Origin: Escherichia phage HY01
DNA: 64,000 nucleotides
Sequence record: NC_027349.1
Strand: one strand, 5' to 3'
The stretch's first letter is position 1, and every line of letters starts with the position of its first letter. The notes beneath the pieces are model-generated. The model made no database searches, was not told the origin of the DNA, and was given only the letters and a program-made list of their open reading frames with translations. Below are positions 15,869-55,781 of the stretch, piece by piece. Position numbers and translations under genes: made by a program.

Positions 15869-16074
15869 TTTGAATGCTCTATAATTAATTTTAAGGCTTC
15901 TTCACTGACAAAAATTTCATCAGGACCTTCTTCTACAACCCAATCAACCCAATCAACCACACGAAGCTGATTAGATAAGAGCTCACATACGAGCTCCTTG
16001 TCATAATTTTTAAATAGCTGGTCAATACGTTTCTTGCGGGCTTTCTTAAGCTGACGTTTATTTAAACGAGCCAT
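15865..16074 (-). CDS. hypothetical small protein
   Basis: 69-aa basic ORF. Confidence 0.4.
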   Translation of the reverse strand: MARLNKRQLKKARKKRIDQLFKNYDKELVCELLSNQLRVVDWVDWVVEEGPDEIFVSEEALKLIIEHSK

Positions 16075-16592
16075 TAATAACCTCGGTCTTGACGAGCGAA
16101 GTTTTCAGCATTTTTCAGATAATAAAGTTTAAAGATTTCTTCAGCAGTAAGGCCGAGACCTTGGAACATGTTCAGAACGAAATGAAGAATATCAATCATT
16201 TCGAATTTAATTTCCAACTGGTCTTGAGGAGACAAATCAGTAATTAGAGTTTCACGGCGTTCACCATGCTGCGACTTCCAAGGCTTCCATACAGCAGATG
16301 CATCTTTTTCACCATTGCTCATACCACCAAGAGAAGTCAGAAGTTCGCGGAATTCATCATCAATGTAATCTTTCTGATTACGCAGCCAATCAACAACTTC
16401 GCCTGCAGTAGCCAAATCATCAGGATGACGGTTATATTCAGGTTTATCTTTAGCTAAACGAACCTGCAAAGATTTCTGCATATCAAGCATAACTTGCAGT
16501 GGGTCTTTTTCGTCACCGAGAATATCCCAGTATTCATTTTGAGCTTTATCAGCGCCTTCGATCAGTTGCGAGCATTCATTAAAGTAAGCCAT
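16074..16592 (-). CDS. 56: dCTPase/dUTPase (MazG-like NTP pyrophosphatase)
   Basis: MAYFNECSQLIEGADKAQNEYWDILGDEKDPLQVMLDMQ... matches T4 gp56; true start is the internal Met (ORF track extends upstream to 16685). Confidence 0.88.
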   Translation of the reverse strand: MAYFNECSQLIEGADKAQNEYWDILGDEKDPLQVMLDMQKSLQVRLAKDKPEYNRHPDDLATAGEVVDWLRNQKDYIDDEFRELLTSLGGMSNGEKDASAVWKPWKSQHGERRETLITDLSPQDQLEIKFEMIDILHFVLNMFQGLGLTAEEIFKLYYLKNAENFARQDRGY

Positions 16593-16626
16593 TATTTTTC
16601 CTTTCAATTCATGGGTTAGTAGATTA

Positions 16627-16652
16627 ATTATACAATAAATATATAAAGCAAT
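16627..16652 (-). promoter_or_regulatory. MotA-dependent middle promoter for gene 56
   Basis: minus-strand MotA box ATTGCTTTA followed 11 nt later by TATAAT. Confidence 0.55.
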
Positions 16653-16663
16653 AAGGAGGACAT

Positions 16664-16864
16664 ATGGTACAAAAATTAATGGCACTTGTTAATGCCATAA
16701 AAGGTAATAAAAAACGTATAGCTTTTACTATTTCTGCTATGATAGGAATTTTACTCTGGAATTTTGTTTTATCACCAATTGCTATTGCTCATGGTGTTAA
16801 TATTCCAGTAATTACTCTTGATACATTCGTAGATTTAGCATTTGCTTTAGTTGGGTTAATTTAA
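16664..16864 (+). CDS. putative small membrane protein (two hydrophobic segments); only plus-strand candidate
   Basis: 66-aa ORF filling the 56-61 intergenic region, preceded by AAGGAGGA 5 nt before ATG; overlaps a minus-strand middle promoter, so it may be fortuitous. Confidence 0.3.
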   Translation: MVQKLMALVNAIKGNKKRIAFTISAMIGILLWNFVLSPIAIAHGVNIPVITLDTFVDLAFALVGLI

Positions 16865-17889
16865 ATCTTAGCATATTTAGATAGCCGCATTTTAGCCATC
16901 AACCCTTGGGCAATATTATTTTTCATATATTCCATAATTTGTTCAGGGGTTGCACCTTCCTTTCTAATCATATCATTAACATCTTTTGATTTCCAGGGAG
17001 ATTTATCCCAAAACATAACTCTTTCTCCTGCATCAACTAATTTAGTCATTCGTTTAATAGTGTCAGGGTGACGAGGTTCATTATCTAAAACCCATACACG
17101 TCTATCTTTAAATGGAACAATTTCTAAGTCTAATTGACCACCCGTAATAGCTATACCATTTTCAATAAAAAGAGAATCTATAGGTCCTTCTAGAACATAT
17201 ACATCACCATCTTTAACCCGTTCGACTCCATAGATTTTTGTTGCCTCAGGATAAGCTTTGATGGTGATATATTTTTGAGGAGCATCTTTCTTTAATGCAC
17301 GTCCTTGAAAAGACTCAGCTTTTCCATTAGCATTATAAATTGGAATAACAAGACGAGGCTCAGGTATTTCCTTTTTGTATGTTCCTGGTGCTATGCTATT
17401 AACTAATTTAGGCCATTCGGTTGTAAACCAAAGATATTTCCATTTATCCTTTGGAATACAGCGAGCTTTTACATATTTTATAATTGGATGGTCTTCCGCC
17501 AGTTTATCTAATCTAATGCATGACGGAAGAGATTTAATTATTTTCTTCTCAGGTTGTTTAGGAAGTTCTTTAGGTTTTTCTACTGGACGACTTTTACCTT
17601 TTTCTTTTCTTATTTCAAAGATATACTCACGATATAAATCAGGTTCAAACTCCTTTAAATATATTCCTATTGGTGCATGATAGTTACAGTTATAACAGTG
17701 AATATTTCCTTCATTATTATCACCATAATACCATCCACGGGCTTTATTTTGGTCGGTTTTTGAATCTCCACAAACCGGGCATCTAAACCGTAATTTAAAA
17801 GTTGAACTATTATTTACTTGTGTGAATTTAGGTAAATGAGCTAGCGCACGATATGCAAACTCATTATCAATCCAAGGTATTGATGACAT
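16861..17889 (-). CDS. 61: DNA primase
   Basis: 342 aa with N-terminal zinc ribbon CPVCGDS...CYNCNYH and a Toprim domain. Confidence 0.93.
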   Translation of the reverse strand: MSSIPWIDNEFAYRALAHLPKFTQVNNSSTFKLRFRCPVCGDSKTDQNKARGWYYGDNNEGNIHCYNCNYHAPIGIYLKEFEPDLYREYIFEIRKEKGKSRPVEKPKELPKQPEKKIIKSLPSCIRLDKLAEDHPIIKYVKARCIPKDKWKYLWFTTEWPKLVNSIAPGTYKKEIPEPRLVIPIYNANGKAESFQGRALKKDAPQKYITIKAYPEATKIYGVERVKDGDVYVLEGPIDSLFIENGIAITGGQLDLEIVPFKDRRVWVLDNEPRHPDTIKRMTKLVDAGERVMFWDKSPWKSKDVNDMIRKEGATPEQIMEYMKNNIAQGLMAKMRLSKYAKI

Positions 17890-55731: not shown

Positions 55732-55760
55732 ATGGAAAGTAAACCGGTAAAATGAAAAAA

Positions 55761-55776
55761 GTCTCCCGAAGGAGAC
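55761..55776 (-). terminator. intrinsic terminator after rI.-1
   Basis: GUCUCC-UUCG-GGAGAC followed by U6. Confidence 0.65.
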
Positions 55777-55781
55777 TAATG

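Follow-up and report, generated by a model that had tools for sequence, protein, structure and literature searches.

The DNA between gene 56 and gene 61 of Escherichia phage HY01 contains a reading frame of 66 codons on the plus strand, and the same DNA carries signals for transcription of the minus strand. This raises the question whether the frame is a gene and, if so, when it would be expressed and what its product may do, or whether it is a fortuitous by-product of regulatory DNA. The window, i.e., the whole stretch of 64,000 nucleotides that was analysed (from NC_027349.1), belongs to a T4-like Tequatrovirus. The elements that define the locus are:

16664 to 16864, plus strand: open reading frame (ORF) of 66 codons with ATG start, plus TAA stop; predicted small membrane protein of PHROG 2024, corresponding to PEC04_0097 in the identical phage record
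16653 to 16660, plus strand: Shine-Dalgarno (SD) sequence AAGGAGGA, 3 nt upstream of the ATG of the ORF (4 nt counted from the GGAGG core)
16074 to 16592, minus strand: gene 56 (dCTPase), left neighbour of the ORF, 77% identical to T4
16861 to 17889, minus strand: gene 61 (DNA primase), convergent right neighbour, its stop codon overlapping the stop of the ORF

The gap between the two genes measures 268 nt (the ATG end of gene 56 is at 16592, the stop of gene 61 at 16861), and the convergent stop codons of the ORF and gene 61 overlap (TTTAAA). The ATG-to-TAA frame of 66 aa and the strong SD in front of it are present as described in the first-pass annotation; the SD-ATG spacing, given there as 5 nt, was measured as 3 nt. 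The description as a lone plus-strand gene also agrees with our data. Escherichia phage PEC04 matches the 1.4 kb surrounding the ORF at 100% identity, and many relatives match it at 96–98%. The PEC04 annotation lists the ORF as 'hypothetical protein' PEC04_0097, the sole plus-strand CDS among 59 CDS in the surrounding 33.4 kb. The window has 38 ATG ORFs of 60 aa or more on the plus strand, and among them a strong SD precedes the 66-codon ORF alone. Its length by itself is within chance, while the SD, the promoter motif described below and the conservation are beyond chance. As a 'hypothetical protein' the gene is already catalogued in the source phage and in hundreds of relatives, which the first-pass annotation had missed, and it is not novel in kind.

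One other strong SD followed by an ATG was seen on the plus strand of the window (ATG at 55779, region 55757–55781). It was rejected as a gene start: it is the stem of a GC hairpin (GTCTCC-CGAA-GGAGAC), a terminator 3′ of a minus-strand gene. A stretch of 43 nt in this region resembles the DNA 3′ of soc in T4 (88% identity).

To determine the distribution of the ORF, its product was used as tblastn query; 691 phage records were matched, 685 of them over the full length, and the Mosigvirus copy as query matched 722 records. The ORF was found intact in about 690 phage genomes, which represent at least six genera of Tevenvirinae. It is always convergent on the right-hand gene, usually gene 61, with a 4-nt stop overlap, and it occupies the same site and strand in T4 and T6 (Tequatrovirus), ST0 (Mosigvirus), VR26 and RZ (Gaprivervirus), Moon (Moonvirus), KEN39 (Jiaodavirus), Klebsiella phage Potts1 and a metagenomic lineage. 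In Krischvirus RB49, outside the subfamily, just 14 nt separate genes 56 and 61, and the ORF is absent. The HMM of PHROG 2024 matched the ORF product with E = 8.2e-31, residues 2–66 aligning to positions 1–65 of the 65 profile positions. Members of this family, named 'hypothetical protein', are PEC04_0097, RB32ORF030w, bas37_0144, gp031 of VR26 and gp35 of Moon. Like these, the ORF is a plus-strand gene of Tevenvirinae that converges on the primase end of the 56–61 interval; it agrees with them in length, in strand and in its location beside the primase gene, we saw no difference, and the ORF is a full member of the family. A profile search yielded 115 cluster representatives, nearly all of 62–68 aa and from contigs of about 165–175 kb. 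An exhaustive HMM search of 1.8 billion representatives gave six matches only, all close relatives, and a search of IMG/VR gave seven loci only.

Eight copies from Tequatrovirus vary at 20 sites, 12 of which are third codon positions, and their pairwise dN/dS ranges from 0.07 to 0.31. Between genera the nucleotide identity is 43–57% and synonymous sites are saturated (pS about 0.7; pN 0.14–0.35), yet the protein motif, the length, the start and the stop are kept. Frame +1 is open in 10 of 10 diverged lineages, every other frame having stops in most of them, and the SD (AGGAGG or AAGGAG) is kept in all lineages. As judged from these substitution patterns, the ORF is under purifying selection and is not a chance ORF. 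This supports the earlier suggestion of a real gene for a small membrane protein. The reservation that the SD-like sequence could be fortuitous is not supported, since the SD is conserved, the ORF is conserved over its full length, its frame is open in diverged lineages, and selection acts at the level of codons. An ORF disrupted by indels in close relatives next to a conserved minus-strand promoter had been named as the picture that would speak against a gene; we found the ORF and its frame intact in the relatives.

A motif typical of T4 late promoters is conserved upstream of the ORF, which had been missed before:

16634 to 16641, plus strand: late promoter element of the T4 type, AATAAATA, which is TATAAATA with A at −13; predicted transcript start at about 16647–16648

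As expected for the promoter of a late gene, a TATAAATA-like element, with variants at −13 allowed, is found shortly upstream of an SD and a start codon. Among 50 listed T4 late promoters, 32 have the perfect TATAAATA and 9 have A(−13) (PMC2988020), and the base at −13 is poorly conserved in T4 relatives (PMC1524935). The late-promoter core (A/G/T)ATAAATA is located 10–26 nt upstream of the SD in the lineages examined (at least six genera), and Moon alone deviates (ATTAAATA). The ORF is preceded by AATAAATA in the window, T6, ST0 and KEN39, by CATAAATA in VR26 and RZ, by GATAAATA in T4 (NC_000866.4 17709–17716) and in the lineages L006, L007 and L018, and by the perfect TATAAATA in Potts1. The DNA 5′ of the motif is unrelated between lineages: the neighbour can be gene 56, dam, a gene for a homing endonuclease or yet another gene.

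The sequence ATAAATA is about 4-fold depleted in the window, with 9 copies on both strands versus 39.8 ± 5.8 expected (2788+, 15693−, 16635+, 42826−, 56715−, 61013+, 63563−, 63576− and 63965+). All five minus-strand copies are located 20–38 nt 5′ of SD-led starts, namely those of soc, 49, e (twice) and a 70-aa ORF, and gene 49 of the window is also preceded by AATAAATA. The plus-strand copies at 2788, 61013 and 63965 are not followed by an SD-led ORF and could be antisense late promoters. Soc, e and the late transcript of gene 49 are T4 late genes in early regions that have their own TATAAATA promoter, and the ORF shares with them the core in front of an SD-led start. Unlike these genes, which are on the early-gene strand, the ORF is encoded on the other strand, convergent with gene 61, and we infer its late transcription.

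Early and middle transcripts of T4 are all of one polarity, while late transcripts can have either polarity (PMC2988020). Since the strand of the ORF is not used by early or middle transcription, late transcription would be the only available route. Based on these signals the ORF is apparently late-expressed: the gp55-directed late RNA polymerase would read it from AATAAATA at 16634–16641, and the predicted leader of about 16 nt would bear the strong SD. Two features count against a late gene, namely the motif of T4 itself (GATAAATA), which is a rarer −13 variant, and the short distance between SD and ATG. A literature search on ribosome profiling, start-site maps and reannotation of T4 found no mention of the ORF.

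The opposite strand carries the following signals in the same DNA:

16651 to 16644, minus strand: MotA box TTGCTTTA of the middle promoter of gene 56, within the leader of the plus-strand ORF
16632 to 16627, minus strand: −10 hexamer TATAAT of the gene 56 middle promoter, with an 11-nt spacer to the MotA box
16698 to 16669, minus strand: terminator-like hairpin downstream of gene 61, 8 bp with loop AACA followed by a U-rich tail (z = −2.05)

The MotA-box middle promoter of gene 56 that had been proposed on first reading was thus recovered (TTGCTTTA, 11 nt, TATAAT), and it agrees with the GenBank record of fPS-2, in which a middle promoter and a terminator are annotated at the corresponding places. 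This promoter (16651–16627) overlaps the late promoter and the leader of the ORF, and the terminator-like hairpin is embedded in codons 2–12. On the plus strand these 75 bp hold the late promoter, the SD and the beginning of the ORF, and on the minus strand an overlapping middle promoter and terminator. The hairpin is restricted to Tequatrovirus and absent from Mosigvirus, Gaprivervirus and Jiaodavirus, so that it cannot account for the conservation of the ORF. Rfam searches of both strands gave only sub-threshold noise, and nothing meaningful was seen among repeats. According to the T4 annotation the gene 56 transcript is the primer of the origin oriA (NC_000866 16763); in phages without dam, the gene 56 middle promoter may thus serve the origin.

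Hydropathy analysis of the ORF product confirmed the two hydrophobic segments noted at first, residues 19–42 with a mean Kyte-Doolittle value of 2.0 and residues 45–66 with a mean of 1.85. The N-terminal 18 residues have five basic and zero acidic charges. After residue 42 the T-even-type copies have one or two acidic residues and no basic one, the Jiaodavirus type has one Lys, and the C-terminus is hydrophobic (...LAFALVGLI). Trp32, Asn33, Pro38 and Gly44 are invariant over 28 diverse members, and Pro48 and Gly64 are nearly so. AF2 on the 28-member alignment predicted helices at 2–12, 16–42 and 52–63 (pLDDT 80.8). The same plan was predicted for a Jiaodavirus-type homologue (helix 14–40, loop, helix 50–59), and some subfamilies have three prolines in the loop before the last helix. 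A single span with the N-terminus inside and the C-terminus outside is favoured by these models over a two-span hairpin, because the last helix is too short to span the membrane and because of the three prolines in some of the loops. The basic N-terminus is predicted to be cytoplasmic and would be followed by one membrane helix of 24–27 residues with Pro and Gly at its outer end. The short acidic-hydrophobic C-terminal helix, too short to recross, would probably be on the periplasmic side. An Asn that is invariant within a membrane helix classically drives helices to associate, and for this reason helix-helix binding is proposed as mode of action. Late in infection, the protein would associate through its helix in the inner membrane with itself or with a membrane partner of host or phage, and it may have a dispensable accessory role related to the envelope or to the timing of lysis. 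For both the topology and the mode of action the basis is limited to rules of sequence and to AF2 models, and the protein is tiny and hydrophobic.

Database searches pointed to the family itself. Pfam had no match to the ORF product and has no model for PHROG 2024, PADLOC (defence and anti-defence) gave no match, the sequence profile search of the PDB had a best E of 0.13 with unrelated membrane segments, and the BFVD fold search returned family members only. Names attached to homologues were not adopted. The T6 RefSeq record NC_054907 uses the label 'putative head morphogenesis protein', which was rejected since the transferred notes of this record are erratic (the dCTPase is noted as 'similar to ferredoxin'), and we also judged the labels 'Holin' (UniRef/BFVD, OE5505 homologue) and 'DNA packaging ATPase' (homologue of Klebsiella phage SAKp28) to be unreliable.

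A common 'FVLSP' stretch prompted a comparison to the T4 antiholin RI, and homology was rejected (hhalign probability 0.8%). RI, with its signal-anchor-release domain, is likewise a small late envelope protein, and its membrane segment ends in a similar L-S-P-x-I-x-A. It differs in having a periplasmic domain of 70 residues, compared to about 22 residues in the ORF product, and there is no detectable homology. The T4 superinfection exclusion proteins Imm and Sp are also small membrane or periplasmic accessory proteins that are non-essential in the laboratory, and they are encoded in the same genome region as the ORF. In contrast to the ORF, imm and sp are early genes on the minus strand, and their products are unrelated in sequence to the ORF product.

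Functional data come from HIDEN-SEQ of the T4 relative Bas37, in which bas37_0144 is a plus-strand gene of 201 nt that overlaps the primase gene by 4 nt (bioRxiv 10.1101/2025.11.20.689424). By position, length and strand this gene is the orthologue of the ORF. Transposon insertions were found at 20 of its 24 TA sites and it was classified as 'Non-essential' (bioRxiv 10.1101/2025.11.20.689424). In the three host comparisons considered here, its log2 fold change was 0.33, 0.20 and −0.28, with q = 1 in each case (bioRxiv 10.1101/2025.11.20.689424). The annotation of T4 in that study does not contain the ORF, so that there is no score for the T4 copy (bioRxiv 10.1101/2025.11.20.689424). Moreover, ATT replaces the ATG in T6 (two independent sequences; L002:1501–1503) and in Yersinia phage PST. 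When a 60-nt query was used, 435 records were matched, and T6 and PST alone were identical to the T6 sequence. The T6 annotation has the start shifted to Met6, a codon that is not preceded by an SD. The tolerance of transposons and the loss of the start codon in T6 and PST suggest that any function of the ORF is dispensable under laboratory conditions, or conditional.

Other explanations were also considered. If the gap were minus-strand regulatory DNA, comprising the terminator of gene 61 and the middle promoter or origin of gene 56, conservation of AT-rich sequence at the DNA level could have yielded an ORF and an SD by chance. The minus-strand promoter and hairpin do occupy DNA of the ORF, plus-strand frames of at least 60 aa are found 38 times in the window, and the orthologue is non-essential. 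However, the minus-strand signals span only about 16627–16698, while the whole frame of 198 nt is conserved, and genera without the hairpin retain the ORF. The preservation of protein motif, length, start and stop at 43–57% nucleotide identity and saturated synonymous sites, together with dN/dS well below 1, leaves a fortuitous ORF scarcely credible. It is also very unlikely that the late promoter mainly serves to silence gene 61 and the replication genes late in infection, through antisense RNA or through collision with the RNA polymerase that it sends into them, and that the ORF is translated only secondarily. [quoted passage not shown] Nevertheless, purifying selection acts on the protein and the SD is kept in all lineages, and in RZ and L018 the downstream gene is not 61. 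The metagenomic lineage L018 (2705–2745) has a strong GC hairpin, CTCTAGAGC-TTCG-GCTCTAGAG, and a T-run directly after the ORF stop, which would stop read-through.

Two further explanations accept the gene and differ in the function of its product. The size of the protein resembles that of class II holins, and a holin- or pinholin-like lysis protein would be a small membrane protein of two helices that forms timed holes. Class II holins and pinholins such as S68 of phage 21 have about 65–70 residues, are hydrophobic and are made late; the ORF product is also small and hydrophobic, has late signals and at least one predicted membrane-spanning helix (residues 19–42, hydropathy 2.0; AF2 helix 16–42), and its OE5505 homologue bears the name 'Holin' in UniRef/BFVD. 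On the other hand, it lacks a charged hydrophilic C-terminal tail (the end is hydrophobic, with no basic residue after 18), the second helix has just 10–12 residues in the AF2 models, no Pfam holin family was matched, and the gene is not linked to the endolysin gene e, which is about 47 kb away. T-even phages already possess the holin T, the loss of which blocks lysis, while the orthologue bas37_0144 is non-essential (20 of 24 TA sites), and we regard a holin as highly improbable. The protein could instead be the precursor of a secreted peptide, residues 1–42 being a long Sec signal peptide that is cut by signal peptidase after P-x-A-x-A, a motif present in most lineages, to release a periplasmic peptide of 22–24 residues. 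In agreement with this, the n-region is basic and the h-region hydrophobic, position −5 is Pro, and positions −3/−1 have small residues (AIA, ALA, ASA, AVA), with a conserved (H/Y/N/Q)-G after the predicted site in most lineages. The hydrophobic core of about 24 residues is, however, much longer than is typical of signal peptides that are cleaved, and there are exceptions to the small residues, namely L at −3 in Mosigvirus and T at −1 in the b-type paralogue. We regard a secreted peptide as quite unlikely.

We therefore consider it highly probable that the ORF is a genuine accessory gene of the Tevenvirinae, encoding an inner-membrane protein of 63–68 residues that would be transcribed late, act by helix-helix association and have a dispensable accessory role. 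A specific role in lysis or lysis inhibition is doubtful and would be a guess. A more far-reaching idea, which we view as rather unlikely, is that an overlooked late gene of the T4 group tunes the end-game at the envelope (timing of holin and antiholin, lysis inhibition) or releases a periplasmic peptide of 22–24 residues that acts on a host envelope protein. Its importance would then be visible only under conditions that were not screened, like high phage density, superinfection or particular hosts.

The first-pass annotation had noted that T4 carries dam at this locus, which proved correct: alignment of the 56–61 interval revealed a difference in gene content, with dam present in T4, and neither dam nor segF occurs anywhere in the window. 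It had missed that T4 also has the ORF, at NC_000866.4 17738–17938 on the plus strand, in the 309-bp gap between dam and 61. This copy is not annotated in the T4 records AF158101.6, NC_000866.4 and MT984581, and automatic annotation of a T4 derivative calls it, with phrog 2024. The block of 97% homology to T4, comprising the ORF and gene 61, starts at 16653 within the SD, and the junction is at 16633–16652; to the left of it, gene 56 is just 77% identical. The promoter motif is kept across this non-homologous junction, which indicates that it is retained through recombination junctions. Thus, the curated reference records of T4, the best-studied phage, omit a conserved and probably expressed gene of 66 codons, and omics studies and gene-by-gene screens that use this annotation skip it. 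This is mainly a point of annotation and housekeeping, which adds one more small, apparently late membrane protein to the T-even inventory and changes no current concept.

The 56–61 interval is a hot spot for cargo, which includes dam in T4, a homing endonuclease in fPS-2 and an HNH endonuclease in RPN226. RZ has a gene of 250 aa between the ORF and 61, and L018 has a gene of 124 aa. Cargo loci in the interval are L013:1878–2627, L018:2704–3078 and L021:1–330. The ORF and its promoter are intact throughout these variants. VR26 has a tandem paralogue (L012:1707–1907) of 23% identity with the same W-N...P...G...P motif and its own SD, and a copy of this b-type is found alone at the site in Potts1 (L016:2501–2701), Marfa and related Klebsiella phages.
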